Shown: piece by piece, positions 10,067 through 15,910 of the stretch
Position numbering within the stretch: position 1 is the first letter of the stretch
Layout of the letters: each line of letters opens with the position of its first letter
Source of the DNA: a virus
IMG/VR virus record: IMGVR_UViG_3300025853_000057
Location: 1 to 64,000 of that record
Direction: 5' to 3' (one strand)
DNA: 64,000 nucleotides
Translations under genes and position numbers: made by a program
The notes under the pieces: model-generated
What the model was told of the DNA's origin: nothing
Seen by the model: only the letters and a program-made list of their open reading frames with translations
The model's database searches: none

Positions 10067-11083
10067 ATGATAAATCTTAATAAGCTTGACTACGACTTAC
10101 TATCTTCAGAGCTGATATTAGAAAAAGTATCAGACTATCAAATATTTGCATATTACATACAAGGACTAGAACTAAATACATCATTTAATAGTCCTTTAAG
10201 GAATGATGATATTCCTTCTTTTAGTGTGTTTTATGCATCTAGATTGGGCAAGCTTTTGTTTAGAGATTTTGCAACTAAAGAAAAAGGTGATTGTTTTGTC
10301 TTTGTATCTAAGCTTTTTGGCTTAAACTACTATCAGAGTCTACAAAAAGTAGCTTTTGATTTTGGTTTAATAAAAGAAGGAACTAATGGTGATAGAGTAA
10401 AGAAAGAACTGCCAAAAGACAAAGAATACAAAAAATACTCTTCAACAGTACATCTAGGAATAAAAAGTATGGACTTTACACCTAAAGATTTAAGGTTTTG
10501 GTCTAGCTTTGGTATAAGCAAATCTACTTTAGAGAAATATAATGTAAGCAGTTGCTCACATATATTTATTAATGATTATATAATAAAAGTAGATAATAGC
10601 AAAAGTCCTGCTTATGCTTATCTAGAGTATAAAGATGAAAAGTATACCTACAAAATCTATCAACCTTTTGAAAAGAAAAGAAGATTTATATCCAATGTGG
10701 ATAAATCTGTATGGCAAGGATGGAGACAAATGCCTGATACAGGAGAAGTCTTAATAATTACTAAGTCCTTGAAAGATGTGATGGCTATTACTGAAGTAAG
10801 TGGGATAAATTCTGTATCTTTACAAGCAGAAACCACTGAACCTAAGCCTCACATCATTAAGCAGTTAAAACAAAGATTTAGTAAAATATACTTGCTTTAT
10901 GATAATGATTTTAACAAAGAAGTAAATAGAGGAAGAATATATGGAAAGGAAATAGCTTCTACTTTTAAAATCAAACAGATTGAAATACCTGATGAATATA
11001 AATCTAAAGACTTTTCTGATTTAGTTAAAAATCATGGAAAGCAAAAATCCCAACAAATTCTCATTAATCTTTTAAACCCTTAA
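10067..11083 (+). CDS. DNA primase (DnaG-like, TOPRIM)
   Basis: SPLRNDDIPSF..F.DFAT...GDCF.FV N-terminal domain; IITKSLKDVM and YDND TOPRIM motifs; KDFSD. Confidence 0.85.
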   Translation: MINLNKLDYDLLSSELILEKVSDYQIFAYYIQGLELNTSFNSPLRNDDIPSFSVFYASRLGKLLFRDFATKEKGDCFVFVSKLFGLNYYQSLQKVAFDFGLIKEGTNGDRVKKELPKDKEYKKYSSTVHLGIKSMDFTPKDLRFWSSFGISKSTLEKYNVSSCSHIFINDYIIKVDNSKSPAYAYLEYKDEKYTYKIYQPFEKKRRFISNVDKSVWQGWRQMPDTGEVLIITKSLKDVMAITEVSGINSVSLQAETTEPKPHIIKQLKQRFSKIYLLYDNDFNKEVNRGRIYGKEIASTFKIKQIEIPDEYKSKDFSDLVKNHGKQKSQQILINLLNP

Positions 11084-11094
11084 TCTTTAAAACT

Positions 11095-11493
11095 ATGCGT
11101 AATATTCGTGTAATCTCTCCTCAATCTACCTCTGCTAGAACTTTTGAATCTGAAGCTACTAACTGGGGTGACCTTAAAGAAGAGTTATCTGGAACCTATT
11201 CAGGTATTTCAGATATGAAAGCTATTGTTAGAGAGACTAGAAATACTCTAGAATCTGATAATGCCTCTTTACCTGAAGGTAATTTTACTGTCATTCTTAG
11301 CATGAAGAAAATTGAATCTGGTAGTGGTAATCGCACTAGATACACTGATTCTCAAATCAGAGAAATTCGTACTAAGTTGATGAATCTTTTGGAAGATATT
11401 CTAGAAGATGTTAATGGTTCTATTCCAGATGAAAGTTTATCTGAAGAAGAGCTAGAAGATTTGGAAAATCTTCGTTCTGAAGGTTTGGCTTAA
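11095..11493 (+). CDS. Putative ubiquitin-like (beta-grasp) modifier precursor; Gly76 followed by 56-aa acidic extension
   Basis: beta-beta-alpha-beta-beta-beta pattern (IRVISP/RTFES/TNWGDLKEEL/MKAIVR/TLE/FTVILS) ending in KKIESG; first gene of an E2-JAB-E1 cluster. Confidence 0.65.
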   Translation: MRNIRVISPQSTSARTFESEATNWGDLKEELSGTYSGISDMKAIVRETRNTLESDNASLPEGNFTVILSMKKIESGSGNRTRYTDSQIREIRTKLMNLLEDILEDVNGSIPDESLSEEELEDLENLRSEGLA

Positions 11494-11513: not shown

Positions 11514-11546
11514 AAAGAGGGTAGTCAATAGGCTACCCTCTTTTTT
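11514..11546 (+). terminator. Intrinsic terminator between Ubl and E2-like genes
   Basis: GAGGGTAGTC-AATA-GGCTACCCTC hairpin followed by TTTTTT. Confidence 0.85.
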
Positions 11547-11566
11547 ATTTTACATATTAAAAGCCT

Positions 11567-12919
11567 ATGACAGAATTAGAATATGCTTTAGAAAATCCGA
11601 AACCTATTGGAGAATTTGTTGAAGAGCACTCTTTGTTTTCTATCAAACAAGAAACATTACAAGAAGATATAACTACAAAGCTTATTCCTTTAGTTTTTAA
11701 CAAAGAAGCAGAAGAGTTTATTATATGGCAAGCTGGGACTATACACCCCTATAATAAAGAAAGAAATGATTTGCGTATTGTAAATGGTTTTTTAACAATT
11801 AATAGTCTTACAATAACTGATTGTTACATTTTACCTTTTGAAGTTGAAAAAGAGTTAAGATTTAATAGAGACCTAACAAATTTTAAGGAAGACCTCTTAA
11901 GTAGTTCTTCTCTTAAAAATGACTACAATAGACTAATAGAGATAGTAAGAGCTGCTGAAGAAATTTATGGAGAAGACAAAGTAGATTTAAAACTAGATAA
12001 TGAGGAAAATATTAGTCTAATAGTACATTACCCTCAAATAGATATAGATGATGAAAATGGTAATACAGAAACTATTTTTGACTCCTATATATGCTACCCT
12101 TTTAGCTTGAATTATGAGGCTTTAAGATTAAGAAATAAAATAGAGATGTTTTCTTCTCATGGTACTTTTGAACAAGCTGGAGCTGGTTATATACATTCTC
12201 ATGCTGCTACTAGAAGTCTTGAGAATTTCTTTTCTAAAAGAAACCTATGTCTAGGAGCTACAGATTTGCAGTGCTTAGTGGATGAGCTACATAGTACAAG
12301 TAACCTAAATGAAGTTGAAGCAGTAGCATTTGAATCTTTATTCTATCAAGTTGATGAACTTCTAGTTTGGGAATCTGAGAATGGAGGTCCTTATATTTAT
12401 TTAAGAGATTTAGGTGAGGATCTTTCAAGGTATGTATTTTTATCGACAGATGATTACTTAGATGAAGATGACTTGACTAATTTTTTACAACAGGCTTTCA
12501 AAAATATAGATATGCTGGAAGAGCCTTATAATTTAGGAACTAATGCATTTATCTATCCTTCTGTAGGTATGCTTGTTGATGCAGGTGAATCCTTTTCTTC
12601 TTTTACCAATGTTATTAACTCCTATTATAATGAATATGAAAATGAGTATTTATTAAGTAGAGAGCTGGACAATGTTGCAAATTTAGCTCTCATAGATAGT
12701 TCACATAAACCCTACTTAACTTTTAGAAATAAACCTATAAATTACGGTATTGATTATGAAAACAAATTACTGGATACAACAGCAACCCTACCCCCAAGAG
12801 AATACGTTGAAACCTTATTCAAGCACTTATCAAAGTACTTACAAGACCTTGGTGAAAGAGAAAGGATTGAAAGTACATCTCTCCCAAGAGATATTAGCGA
12901 AAATTTGGTATTTATGTAA
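11567..12919 (+). CDS. Prokaryotic E2-like (UBC-fold) conjugating-enzyme domain protein
   Basis: GYIHSH-x15-C(LG) (Cys codon 12248-12250) resembles the E2 HPN...C signature; followed by helix and WESENGGPY; lies between Ubl and JAB. Confidence 0.55.
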   Translation: MTELEYALENPKPIGEFVEEHSLFSIKQETLQEDITTKLIPLVFNKEAEEFIIWQAGTIHPYNKERNDLRIVNGFLTINSLTITDCYILPFEVEKELRFNRDLTNFKEDLLSSSSLKNDYNRLIEIVRAAEEIYGEDKVDLKLDNEENISLIVHYPQIDIDDENGNTETIFDSYICYPFSLNYEALRLRNKIEMFSSHGTFEQAGAGYIHSHAATRSLENFFSKRNLCLGATDLQCLVDELHSTSNLNEVEAVAFESLFYQVDELLVWESENGGPYIYLRDLGEDLSRYVFLSTDDYLDEDDLTNFLQQAFKNIDMLEEPYNLGTNAFIYPSVGMLVDAGESFSSFTNVINSYYNEYENEYLLSRELDNVANLALIDSSHKPYLTFRNKPINYGIDYENKLLDTTATLPPREYVETLFKHLSKYLQDLGERERIESTSLPRDISENLVFM

Positions 12920-13955
12920 AAGTATCAATGACGTAGAATGGTCAGGTATAATCTTTTGTAAAACTGAAGGACATCCTATAAATCTTGATACTTTTAAGTT
13001 AGAGCCTATAGATATTCTTCCTATGCATAAGGGAGAGCCTTCATATACAGAGTTTGAGGTAGATGAATCTATTATTGATGCTTATGATAATAACCCTGTA
13101 TTAGAAGATTGTAAAATGGGTATTATCCACTCTCATGTAGATATGAATGTATTCTTTAGTGGTACAGATACTTCTACTTTGCATAAGTACGCTGCTATGT
13201 CTAATTTCTGTATTTCCATCATTGTTAATAATGCTGGAGATGTTACAGGTAAAGTCGCTTATTTGGTAAAAAACAAAACCAAATCTTATCTTTCTGAGTA
13301 TATGAATGAAGATGGTAATTGGATTAGTTCTAAAGAAGAAGAAAATGAGGTAGAAAATAGTGTAATTGTAGAAGTACCTCTTACTTTTTCCTTTGACTTA
13401 GATAACCTATTTAATAATAGAGTAGATACCATTATTAAAAAAGCTCAGGAAGAAAAGAAAGTTGTTGGATTTGGAAAAACAAAAACTGTTACACAAAGTT
13501 CATCATATAGTAATCCTTATAACTACTTCAATAATCAAGTACCTGCTAACACTGAATATAAATACAGTAGATACGAATTACTTAATTTCATTTGTAAGCT
13601 TTTAGAAAATAATACTAACAGCCTTAATAGTGGTGTTTTAGTAGCCTTGGATAAGTTTTATAAAGAAGTTTTAGGTAAAGGTCTATGTAAAGCAGATGAT
13701 ATGGTAGATTGGTTTATTAACTCTATTGCCAGCAACCATGGAGGAAAATTCTTCCCTAGTACAGTTTCTCAAACTCAAGAAGCTGATTTTATAGGTCAGG
13801 CTTTAGATATTTTAGTAGAAGTAAGTTCAAATGATGCTATAGCAAAAGCAGATAAAGAAGATGTGCTGTCAGATTTATATGAAGCTTTAAACAGCATCTA
13901 CTATGACGATGATGAAATTCTAGACGATGACTATGATTTCACACATGTGTACTAA
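12756..13955 (+). CDS. JAB/JAMM (MPN+) metallopeptidase
   Basis: EWSG...IIHSHVDMNVFFSGTD = E-xn-HxH-x7-S-x2-D; start uncertain (ATG 12756). Confidence 0.85.
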   Translation: MKTNYWIQQQPYPQENTLKPYSSTYQSTYKTLVKEKGLKVHLSQEILAKIWYLCKSINDVEWSGIIFCKTEGHPINLDTFKLEPIDILPMHKGEPSYTEFEVDESIIDAYDNNPVLEDCKMGIIHSHVDMNVFFSGTDTSTLHKYAAMSNFCISIIVNNAGDVTGKVAYLVKNKTKSYLSEYMNEDGNWISSKEEENEVENSVIVEVPLTFSFDLDNLFNNRVDTIIKKAQEEKKVVGFGKTKTVTQSSSYSNPYNYFNNQVPANTEYKYSRYELLNFICKLLENNTNSLNSGVLVALDKFYKEVLGKGLCKADDMVDWFINSIASNHGGKFFPSTVSQTQEADFIGQALDILVEVSSNDAIAKADKEDVLSDLYEALNSIYYDDDEILDDDYDFTHVY

Positions 13956-13969
13956 ATAAATAAATAAAT

Positions 13970-14665
13970 ATGCAAAATTCTTATAACTCCCGTTTTAAGG
14001 ATGCTGCATGGTTACCTACTGCCCAGTCCCTTGATGTAACTATCGGAGGGGCTGGGGGTATAGGTTCCATTGTAGCATTTCTTATGTCCAGAATAGGACC
14101 TAGGTCTATAACTTTATATGACAACGATACAGTAAACAGGCATAATTTATCTAATCAGCTTTTTGGCAAAGAGGATATGGATAAGTCTAAAGTAGAAGCA
14201 GTAATGAACTTATGTAAAAACTACTCACGTTATTTCATTAAAGCAGTTCCAGACTTATTTACTTTGCAAACACCTTCTACTCCAGTGATGTTTAGTTGTT
14301 TTGATAATATGGAAGCTAGAGAACAAATGTTTGAAGTATTTAAACAAAACTGTGATAAACACCAAGAAGAAGGTACACCTCCAATATTTATAGATGGTAG
14401 ACTAACAGCAGAGCAGTTTTTCATATATGCAGTTACTCCAAATAGAATAGAGGATTATGAAAAAACTCTATTTCCTAGTAGTGAAGCTGCAAACTTGCCT
14501 TGTGGTTTTAAAGGTACTACCCACAATAGCTTTATGATTGGCTCTAAGATGGTAGCTTTGTTTACAAACCATTGCTTTAATATAGCTGTAGGAGAACATA
14601 TTAGGGATGTTCCTTTTAGTGTAGAAAATGAAATCTTTAACATGCTAGAAACTGTAACATTATGA
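13970..14665 (+). CDS. ThiF/MoeB/E1-family adenylating enzyme
   Basis: GAGGIGS, YDNDTVNRHNLSNQLF, KSKVEA, CFDNMEAR, FIDGR; candidate catalytic Cys in NLPCG; N-terminal SRF arginine finger. Confidence 0.9.
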   Translation: MQNSYNSRFKDAAWLPTAQSLDVTIGGAGGIGSIVAFLMSRIGPRSITLYDNDTVNRHNLSNQLFGKEDMDKSKVEAVMNLCKNYSRYFIKAVPDLFTLQTPSTPVMFSCFDNMEAREQMFEVFKQNCDKHQEEGTPPIFIDGRLTAEQFFIYAVTPNRIEDYEKTLFPSSEAANLPCGFKGTTHNSFMIGSKMVALFTNHCFNIAVGEHIRDVPFSVENEIFNMLETVTL

Positions 14666-15480
14666 TTAACATTGTACAAACTAGGAATATATATCCTCCT
14701 ACTTATAAAATCAATACTGATAGGAGTAAAGTTATTTATGGTAAAAAAATTCTAGACAGAAATCTTTTGCAAAGAAGAGTATTTCTAAATCATAGTGAAT
14801 ATAATAGTTTGCCTTCTTTAGTTATAACTCCTACTTTTTATCAAATTGGAATAAGTATAAGTATTAATGGGGGAGAACAATATACAGGAATAGCATTCTT
14901 GAAGAACCTTACAACTCTTCTTAAAGAAAACTTAAATGTCTTACTAACTCCTGACTTAGAGTTTAATAACAATTGTAAAGTACGTACTTATACTTCTACT
15001 CATCAGGTTAGGTTAGAAACCTTAGCTAATCCTTTTGATATTGTTAACAATGGTATCTGTTATGTACATGGGAGTTTACTTTACTTAGATTCATTATTAG
15101 CAGTTCCTTTAGCTGCTCTTACTATAGATAAATCTTATATGCAACTTCCTTTTATTTATTTCTTAGTAAGAGAAATATTAGGAGAGGAAAAAATGCAAGA
15201 ATTAGGTCTAGGTCTAGATGAGTTTTTAAGTATTCCAGGTCTTTTTAAATTAGAAGTATCTAACCCTCCTCTTTTAGATGAAGATTTTTTGTTAAGTAGC
15301 CAGCTAATAAAAAGCTTATGGAAAATGATAAAACATGCTCAAAAGATTGGTTTAGAAATTAAAGGCAGAGATGATATGAAAAAAGAAGACTATGTTTCAA
15401 CCATACAAAATGATATTACATTTGATGAGTTTGTTGAATATGTAAAATCTAAAGTAGAAGAGGAGGAAGTAAATGCATAA
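14662..15480 (+). CDS. Hypothetical protein translationally coupled to E1
   Basis: ATGA overlap with the E1 stop; no recognisable motif. Confidence 0.6.
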   Translation: MINIVQTRNIYPPTYKINTDRSKVIYGKKILDRNLLQRRVFLNHSEYNSLPSLVITPTFYQIGISISINGGEQYTGIAFLKNLTTLLKENLNVLLTPDLEFNNNCKVRTYTSTHQVRLETLANPFDIVNNGICYVHGSLLYLDSLLAVPLAALTIDKSYMQLPFIYFLVREILGEEKMQELGLGLDEFLSIPGLFKLEVSNPPLLDEDFLLSSQLIKSLWKMIKHAQKIGLEIKGRDDMKKEDYVSTIQNDITFDEFVEYVKSKVEEEEVNA

Positions 15481-15910
15481 ATTCTTTATACCAGGTAATG
15501 TACCTTCTCTTAAAAATTCTAAGGTAAAAACCTCAAGAGGGATTTTTCCTTCTAAAACAGTTGTAAGCTACTTAAAAGACCTGGGTATCAAAAGATACTC
15601 AGTAAGAGATAAAGTAGTAGAAGAATATGTTAGAAGGGAAAATCTCTTTAAAAAGTACTTAGCTACTTTCCCTACTGAATTAGAGTATCCTATACACATG
15701 GGATTTCATTTTATTAGGAAGTCTAAAAGAGATTTTGACTTCAATAATGCTACACAAATAATTCAGGACTTGTTAGTAGCACACAACTATATAGAAGATG
15801 ATTCTATGAGGTTTTTACTCCCTTATCCCCTACAAATTGAAGGTTTGTACTATTCCATAAATCCTAAGAACCCAGGAGTAATTTTAAAAGTTGATTATGA
15901 CAGAAGATAA
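15473..15910 (+). CDS. RusA-like Holliday junction resolvase
   Basis: IPGNVPSLKNSK...DFNNATQIIQDLLV..NYIEDDS acidic catalytic pattern. Confidence 0.75.
   Translation: MHKFFIPGNVPSLKNSKVKTSRGIFPSKTVVSYLKDLGIKRYSVRDKVVEEYVRRENLFKKYLATFPTELEYPIHMGFHFIRKSKRDFDFNNATQIIQDLLVAHNYIEDDSMRFLLPYPLQIEGLYYSINPKNPGVILKVDYDRR

Follow-up and report, generated by a model that had tools for sequence, protein, structure and literature searches.

A ubiquitin-like precursor with an extended C-terminal tail and its candidate processing and conjugation enzymes in a crAss-like phage

The analysed stretch of DNA (the window, 64,000 nucleotides) covers positions 1 to 64,000 of an IMG/VR virus record (IMGVR_UViG_3300025853_000057) that is 76.5 kb long and ~77% complete, and it stems from a crAss-like phage of Flavobacteriia type. 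Between a primase gene (10067-11083) and the gene of a RusA-like resolvase (15473-15910) five co-oriented genes are located, which encode a ubiquitin-like (Ubl) precursor, a probable E2-like protein, a JAB/JAMM peptidase, a ThiF-type E1 and an orphan protein. The features of the locus are listed below in window positions.

11095-11493, plus strand: Ubl precursor gene, 132 aa plus stop (ORF list; 67 close and 1055 distant homologues)
11095-11322, plus strand: ubiquitin-like beta-grasp domain, residues 1-76, the predicted mature Ubl (AlphaFold2 (AF2) pLDDT ~88; Foldseek and VIA matches to ubiquitin, FAT10, ISG15 and NEDD8)
11308-11322, plus strand: C-terminal motif K72-I-E-S-G76, with Gly76 (11320-11322) as predicted P1 and adenylation site (column statistics of 156 sequences)
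11323-11346, plus strand: variable linker, residues 77-84, disordered in the model, with the predicted scissile bond G76|S77 (pLDDT, indels, entropy)
11347-11418, plus strand: tail helix 1, residues 85-108, after the conserved R82-Y83; counterpart of the Y-x-E-L-R helix of the family (AF2)
11419-11490, plus strand: acidic loop and C-terminal amphipathic helix (residues 117-129), ending in L-R-S-E-G-L-A (AF2; conservation among close homologues)
11514-11553, plus strand: intrinsic terminator hairpin between the Ubl and E2-like genes, 13-bp GC-rich stem and T-run (scan)
11567-12919, plus strand: probable E2-like protein, 450 aa, with a UBC-like core at about residues 112-276 (alignment, AF2, VIA)
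12200-12202 and 12248-12250, plus strand: invariant residues H212 and C228 of the E2-like protein (alignment)
12756-13955, plus strand: JAB/JAMM peptidase, start uncertain (ATG 12756 or TTG 12864), overlapping the E2-like gene
12936-12938, 13128-13136, 13158-13160 and 13167-13169, plus strand: JAB motif E, H-x-H, S and D, all five residues invariant in the alignment
13970-14665, plus strand: ThiF-type E1, 231 aa, adenylation motif intact, invariant Cys178 at 14501-14503 (Pfam ThiF 9.6e-15; PDB matches; alignment of 11 homologues)
14662-15480, plus strand: 272-aa orphan ORF (orf272) between E1 and RusA

The start of the ORF at 11095-11493 is fixed, because the N-terminus MR(N/T)IRV is conserved. 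The terminator that follows this gene fits a substrate which is probably made in excess of its enzymes; hairpins of unrelated sequence were found at the same position in 10 of 12 divergent loci and also behind the corresponding gene of Bacteroides phage crAss001 (Gp79). Further downstream, the frame of the JAB overlaps the E2-like gene (window 12750-12919) by at least ~56 nt (start at TTG 12864) and by up to 164 nt (start at ATG 12756), and annotated overlaps of both genes elsewhere amount to 125 nt (gp57/gp56 of Flavobacterium phage Fpv1) and 62 nt (Gp78/Gp77 of crAss001). A constant +1 relation of the two frames, which might have hinted at a frameshift fusion, was dropped as it fails in one locus (L016). 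Likewise, orf272 was rejected as a conserved fifth component, a homologue being present only in one related locus (L005) among the loci compared.

The AlphaFold2 model of the precursor, calculated with 18 homologues, consists of a beta-beta-alpha-beta-beta domain (residues 1-70, pLDDT ~88), a segment of pLDDT below 50 at residues 75-79 and two helices at residues 85-108 and 117-129. Foldseek against the PDB returned ubiquitin, NEDD8, SUMO, ISG15 and a ubiquitin-like protein of Bacteroides fragilis at E ~3e-4. An exhaustive VIA-align comparison of residues 1-76 with 48,161 chains gave Z values of 8.0-9.3 at an rmsd of ~2 A with 67-72 of the 76 residues aligned; the matches were led by ubiquitin, ISG15 and FAT10, and the top 50 rows all belonged to the ubiquitin superfold, MoaD being among them at Z 8.4. 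Among viral models the best matches were uncharacterised proteins encoded by Fpv3 and by three crAss-like phages from the gut (cr111_1, cr126_1 and cr106_1), followed in rank by ubiquitins of giant viruses and baculoviruses. The window protein hence possesses a beta-grasp fold of ubiquitin size, as had been proposed in the initial sequence-only reading. Searches by sequence gave no Pfam, NCBIfam, PADLOC or PDB match for the Ubl, even with 35 family members scanned, and no homology to ubiquitin was detected in the profile and domain searches. The profiles of the Ubl, the E2-like protein and the JAB likewise retrieved nothing usable from the PDB by sequence. A di-Ubl or poly-Ubl architecture was rejected, a second beta-grasp domain being found in 0 of 155 sequences.

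A profile search of 1.84 billion representatives yielded 1055 proteins at E<=1e-3, and the column statistics are based on 156 sequences, i.e. the best 150 of these 1055 family members plus six others. Gly76 is found in 156/156 and forms the sole 100% invariant column of the alignment. It is preceded by K72 (129/156), K74 (142/156) and S/A75 (152/156), resulting in the consensus K-x-K-[S/A]-G, while at P3 (residue 74) the window protein carries Glu and its close relatives carry Ala. The conservation ends sharply behind the K-x-x-S-G motif, a behavior that had been named as a check on the precursor claim: at residue 76 the entropy is 0.0 bits, one position later it has reached 3.6 bits, and just past G76 values of 3.5-4 bits are found. 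In close homologues (48-87% identity), which can be aligned over their full length, the invariant columns are packed into M41-G76, indels of 0-8 residues occur directly after G76 and weaker conservation is resumed in the tail. Gly76 is located within a flexible C-terminal segment whose flanking linker is disordered in the model, so that its invariance is better explained by recognition, cleavage or adenylation than by folding. As judged from alignment and model, the constraint on this residue is functional rather than structural.

The Gly76 codon (GGT) was confirmed at 11320-11322, with K72-I-E-S before and S77-G78 behind it, exactly as read at the outset. Position for position, the basic-x-basic-small-Gly end coincides with R72-L-R74-G-G76 of ubiquitin, which is a resemblance and not evidence of homology. 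The caution that the shared number 76 may be coincidental proved justified, as it is explained by the domain size; the conserved Gly lies at residue 75-77 in 106/156 members (mode 76), and a sequence relation to ubiquitin is lacking in the searches described above. Two cleavage sites, behind G76 or behind G78, had been envisaged. By comparison with relatives and precedents the former is favored, with its invariant Gly, the obligate extension and the intact adjoining JAB, E1 and E2-like genes, and the latter was rejected, since Gly occurs at position 78 in just 16 of ~150 sequences.

The tail of the window protein (residues 77-132) comprises 56 aa with 15 D/E versus 6 K/R and a net charge of -9, and it is folded into two helices in the AF2 model, in agreement with the helix and the strongly acidic tail that had been read from the sequence. 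Across the family the tails vary between 1 and 241 aa (median 80) and in all 156 proteins at least one residue follows the Gly. Ubl precursors show this pattern, and a processing step is therefore implied in every member. Longer fused forms were not retrieved by a word-index search and were found in large number by the exhaustive profile search. Tails of 1-11 residues occur in 10/156 proteins, for example ..KVKSG-K, -CT, -LTK and -GNC. A one-residue tail (..KVKSG-F-stop) was verified in the DNA of locus L019, well inside a 66.8-kb viral contig, and this Ubl is still followed by the genes of the E2-like protein, the JAB and the E1. Because such a tail exists, the tail is dispensable for the cassette, as far as gene content tells. 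For two further short-tail members (P0074 and P0132) no locus was found in a scan of IMG/VR. Between the short Ubl and the E2-like gene of L019 a separate 49-aa acidic ORF is present (L019:6277-6426); an origin as a split-off tail is not supported, as it shares no significant similarity with any tail (best phmmer E 0.002 on composition; blastp E 0.05).

The tail itself is under purifying selection. Pairwise dN/dS values of the tail (0.17-0.46) are in the same range as those of the Ubl domain (0.15-0.43). In close homologues R82, Y83, T93, K94, L95, N97 and D101 are near-invariant and the terminal L-x-x-L-R-x-E-G-L is kept. A tail-opening helix with [Y/F]-x-[E/D]-[L/C]-[R/K] was found in 53 of 146 tails; in longer ones it is extended to a module of ~50 residues (..Y-K-E-L-R..I-K....N-Y-T..S-T..L-R..L..W), and most family tails possess an amphipathic terminal helix. 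Owing to the purifying selection and the conserved helices the tail is more than a mask or cap and probably has a function of its own, in docking, in regulation or as cargo. A role as DNA mimic had been suggested for the released acidic peptide. Net-acidic tails are found in 74% of the members, about a quarter are not acidic and several are lysine-rich, which makes such a role unlikely as a family trait; at most it may apply to the acidic subfamily to which the tail of the window belongs. Matches to SAP/HeH models (Pfam SAP, SAP_new25, HeH) were observed in the tails of 3 of 16 proteins scanned at E 0.005-0.1, all below cutoff, and the remaining matches fell inside the helix of the beta-grasp domain and were spurious. 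In view of these sub-threshold and inconsistent matches the SAP/HeH identity of the tail helix was not adopted and is kept only as a lead.

The order Ubl, E2-like, JAB, E1 is preserved in 16/16 related loci with enough flanking sequence, down to ~30% identity, and these four components thus stand together in one cassette. A ThiF-family E1 with invariant adenylation motif lies downstream of the Ubl in all 16 loci, and the JAB is the only peptidase which travels with the Ubl across them. The cassette is located between primase and RusA in virus records, including those of the cultured lytic phages Fpv1, in which it extends from gp58 to gp53, and crAss001. In the latter (L023, NC_049977.1, 2286-6696) Gp79 is the Ubl, Gp78 the E2-like protein, Gp77 a 'metalloprotease' and Gp76 a 'thiamine biosynthesis protein'; Gp79 (225 aa, profile E 6e-19) exhibits KKIKSG followed by a 135-aa tail. 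The E1 was found in 74 phage records, all of them Flavobacterium or Bacteroides crAss-like phages, and a close relative of the Ubl was found in none of 185,579 bacterial and archaeal genomes.

In Fpv1 (L001, NC_031914.1, 8056-10348) the JAB is split. Its N-terminal part with the conserved Glu is encoded by gp56 (117 aa) and the part with H-x-H...S..D by gp54 (314 aa), with the 'endonuclease' gene gp55 between them on the opposite strand. A split JAB is also present in FpV4, whose Ubl is gp58. Phages of this type keep a Ubl precursor with a 206-aa tail, and for this reason the two-piece JAB may be functional.

In the E2-like protein the residues Y208, S211, H212 and C228 as well as a W-E-S-x-E-G-x-P-Y block are invariant in the alignment. 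Its AF2 model (pLDDT 73) displays a helix, a four-strand meander, a loop with the His, the Cys and then helices, corresponding to the UBC topology. A second-look structural alignment with VIA gave Z values of 4-5.8, and the matches were almost exclusively UEV, E2, RWD and CBASS Cap2 E2 domains. No match in Pfam, NCBIfam, PADLOC or, by sequence, in the PDB was obtained for this protein, and from alignment and model its assignment as E2-like is probable. The JAB is recognized by a PADLOC JAB model and, below cutoff, by Pfam Prok-JAB, and its E, H-x-H, S, D motif is unchanged across the alignment. The best Pfam and NCBIfam matches of the E1 are ThiF/MoeB, those of the NCBIfam scan lying far below the family cutoffs. 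The E1 aligns to the adenylation domain only; the nucleotide-binding and adenylation residues and Cys178 (P-C-x-x-K-x-T-x-H), a single Cys within the core, are invariant in 11 homologues. PDB sequence matches of the E1 comprise ThiF-type proteins, MccB and UBA5. The best-matching solved structures are 9egb and 9egc/9egd (264-265 aa, E ~1e-6), ahead of MccB and UBA5, and they are named only 'THIF-type NAD/FAD binding fold domain-containing protein'.

A comparison of the window with the closely related locus L005 revealed a mosaic of divergence. The primase (93%), the E1 (86%), RusA (97%) and the Ubl (83%) are highly identical, whereas the E2-like proteins (L005:7461-8816 vs 11567-12919) share just 43% and the orphans behind the E1 (L005:10560-11417 vs 14662-15480) 39% identity. 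In the E2-like protein the differences are located in the N- and C-terminal parts, outside the core. This pattern resembles the outcome of diversifying selection on the parts that recognise targets.

Directly seen in the sequences and models are the beta-grasp fold, an invariant Gly that is always followed by further residues, the conserved gene order and the unbroken catalytic motifs. From this anatomy of the window and from the Bil and Bub precedents we infer cleavage, its site, adenylation and conjugation, and we regard it as likely that the phage encodes a Ubl precursor which is cut by the JAB at G76|S77, whose freed Ubl is used by the E1 and the E2-like protein and whose tail is more than a cap. 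The JAB metallopeptidase would hydrolyze the G76|S77 bond and release a 76-residue beta-grasp protein ending in K-I-E-S-G together with a 56-residue acidic two-helix peptide. The 231-aa E1 would then adenylate Gly76 and possibly pass the Ubl to its invariant Cys178. Cys228 of the E2-like protein would next receive the Ubl, and the rapidly evolving domains that flank the core of this protein would select the targets. The Ubl would finally be conjugated to these targets, and the JAB may also reverse the conjugation.

The predicted trimming by the JAB after Gly76 is well supported because of the invariant Gly, the never-absent tail, the synteny, the intact motifs and two precedents. BilC cuts BilA, whose tails reach nine residues, after a conserved Gly (PMC10557695), and the JAB domain of BubCD cuts the Ubl-E2 fusion BubAB after a conserved Gly (PMC11601596). 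Against the main reading stand the structural scores of the E2-like protein (Z <6), the JAB match below the Pfam cutoff and the Glu at P3 of the window protein.

The selection on the tail and its conserved modules would also suit a scheme that makes the tail the principal product and turns the N-terminal Ubl into a pro-domain or chaperone to be cleaved off, as in ubiquitin-ribosomal protein fusions and SDE2; the JAB would release a peptide acting at the replication module, e.g. by binding DNA, the replisome or a host protein. The tails are very diverse, like exchangeable cargo, the BFVD relatives bear differing UniProt names, the gene sits between primase and resolvase, and SDE2 and DWNN are among the structural neighbours (Atlas), all of which is in line with this scheme. 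Nevertheless, we consider it unlikely. The tails of 1-11 residues and the full cassette beside a one-residue tail in L019 indicate that what stays constant is the Ubl and not the tail; a mere pro-domain would have no use for E1 and E2-like genes, and the tails gave no significant domain match, the SAP/HeH matches being too weak and inconsistent. Improbable to a slightly higher degree is a beta-grasp domain which serves as a non-covalent N-terminal module, like the UBL of Rad23/Dsk2, and is never cleaved or conjugated. Such a domain would be compatible with residues behind the Gly in every member and with the many non-conjugated UBL domains among the structural neighbours. However, UBL domains of this kind keep no invariant terminal Gly in a disordered linker, which here is the single invariant column, members with 1-5 residues past the Gly make no sense as a domain plus partner, and the link to E1, JAB and E2-like genes is strict.

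QbsD trims QbsE, and the phage Ubl might similarly be a ThiS/MoaD-like sulfur carrier, trimmed by the JAB and thiocarboxylated by the ThiF-type E1 for a thio-modified nucleotide or cofactor during replication. The ThiF/MoeB matches and the GenBank label of the E1, MoaD among the fold matches and the position within the replication module agree with this proposal, but the cassette contains no sulfurtransferase, cysteine desulfurase, rhodanese or biosynthetic gene, its surroundings being primase, E2-like, JAB, E1, orphan ORF and RusA. Since, in addition, the cassette always includes a conserved Cys-bearing protein of UBC-like fold, the fold matches are headed by ubiquitin, ISG15 and FAT10 and the E1 matches all lie far below family cutoffs, a sulfur carrier appears very unlikely. 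Concerning the peptidase, many JAMM enzymes are isopeptidases, the present data do not separate cleavage of a peptide bond from that of an isopeptide bond, and the JAB could be mainly a deconjugase. By contrast, it is highly improbable that it is only a deconjugase and that the precursor loses its tail by self-cleavage or through a different protease of phage or host: no other peptidase accompanies the Ubl in the 16 loci, and both BilC (PMC10557695) and the BubCD JAB domain (PMC11601596) perform pre-processing. Processing of the precursor by the JAB followed by conjugation is consequently retained as the preferred reading.

Compared with the ISG15-like BilABCD system (PMC10557695; summary in PMC11601603), the phage cassette consists of the same four parts, Ubl, E2 (a probable one in the phage), JAB and E1, in the same order. 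In both cases the Ubl is made with residues past the conserved Gly, which BilC removes, and a small residue precedes the Gly at the mature end, A-G in BilA of E. aridi and [S/A]-G here (PMC10557695). However, Bil is a bacterial anti-phage defence, whereas lytic crAss-like phages carry the present cassette in their replication module; the tails of BilA do not exceed nine residues, compared with 1-241 aa and conserved modules here, and the Bil E1 possesses a separate mobile CYS domain (PMC10557695), which is lacking in the 231-aa adenylation domain of the phage E1. Moreover, neither the phage Ubl nor the E2-like protein is recognized by a model of Pfam (Prok-E2_*, Prok_Ub and similar), NCBIfam or PADLOC. 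By analogy the phage system would work like Bil, but it stands outside Bil in sequence family, E1 CYS domain and defence context.

In type I Bub (PMC11601596), as in the phage protein, a second functional polypeptide is attached to the conserved Gly of a Ubl; a JAB separates the two and exposes the Gly in Bub, and would do so in the phage. The C-terminal part of BubAB is the E2 (BubB), in contrast to the 56-aa two-helix tail and the separate E2-like gene found here; the chemistry of Bub relies on Tyr and Ser oxyesters, whereas the phage E2-like protein has an invariant Cys, and the phage tails are short helical or low-complexity peptides. In phages lambda and T1, TAPI combines a beta-grasp domain with a conserved Gly, a linker and a C-terminal domain and was predicted to be cut by the adjacent TAPK JAB (Iyer, Burroughs and Aravind 2006, PMC1779556). 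Unlike the present genes, which lie in a replication module together with an E1 and an E2-like protein, TAPI belongs to a tail module without E1/E2. In eukaryotes the C-terminal extensions of ubiquitin-ribosomal protein fusions, polyubiquitin caps, SUMO/NEDD8 pro-forms and SDE2 have to be removed by a protease, and in some cases they are functional proteins themselves. As in these fusions, the phage modifier is always translated with a C-terminal extension; unlike them, it is found in a phage context with a JAMM metalloprotease instead of a Cys protease as predicted processing enzyme, and no sequence homology to them was detected.

To our knowledge, the prokaryotic ubiquitin-like conjugation systems described so far (Bil, Bub, CBASS Cap2/3) serve bacteria in defence. 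In the present case a virus seems to carry the complete Ubl kit, and so do the cultured crAss001 (Gp79-Gp76), DAC15 and the fish-pathogen phages FpV4 and Fpv1. Of these, crAss001 and DAC15 are members of the most abundant phage order of the human gut. Literature searches outside subscription journals turned up no account of this cassette for crAss-like or Flavobacterium phages. Processing of Ubl precursors as such is already known; new are the long, modular and selected tails on a phage-encoded Ubl.

As a tentative extension, which we hold to be possible but doubtful, Crassvirales and their Flavobacteriia relatives would always encode the Ubl as a fusion, as eukaryotes do, and a single JAB cut would yield an activatable modifier for the phage E1/E2 pathway as well as an exchangeable cargo peptide (acidic, lysine-rich or helix-extended-helix), which either has its effect at the replication factory or keeps the supply of Ubl tethered to it. 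If this held, the tail would represent a second, evolvable effector rather than a cap. The precursor rule, that is an invariant and never terminal Gly with tails of 1-241 aa, predicts a JAB cut at G|x. Because Lys stands at P3, trypsin would leave Ser-Gly as conjugate remnant on lysine in most members, and I-E-S-G in the window phage, providing a handle for the search of targets by mass spectrometry.

In GenBank the E1 of crAss001, DAC15, the PhiCrAssBcn phages and the Fpv phages is labelled 'thiamine biosynthesis protein (ThiF)'. The JAB is entered there as 'metalloprotease domain containing protein', whereas Ubl and E2-like protein are listed as hypothetical. The context of the cassette suggests that these labels are misleading, and it corrects in particular the assignment of the E1 to thiamine biosynthesis.
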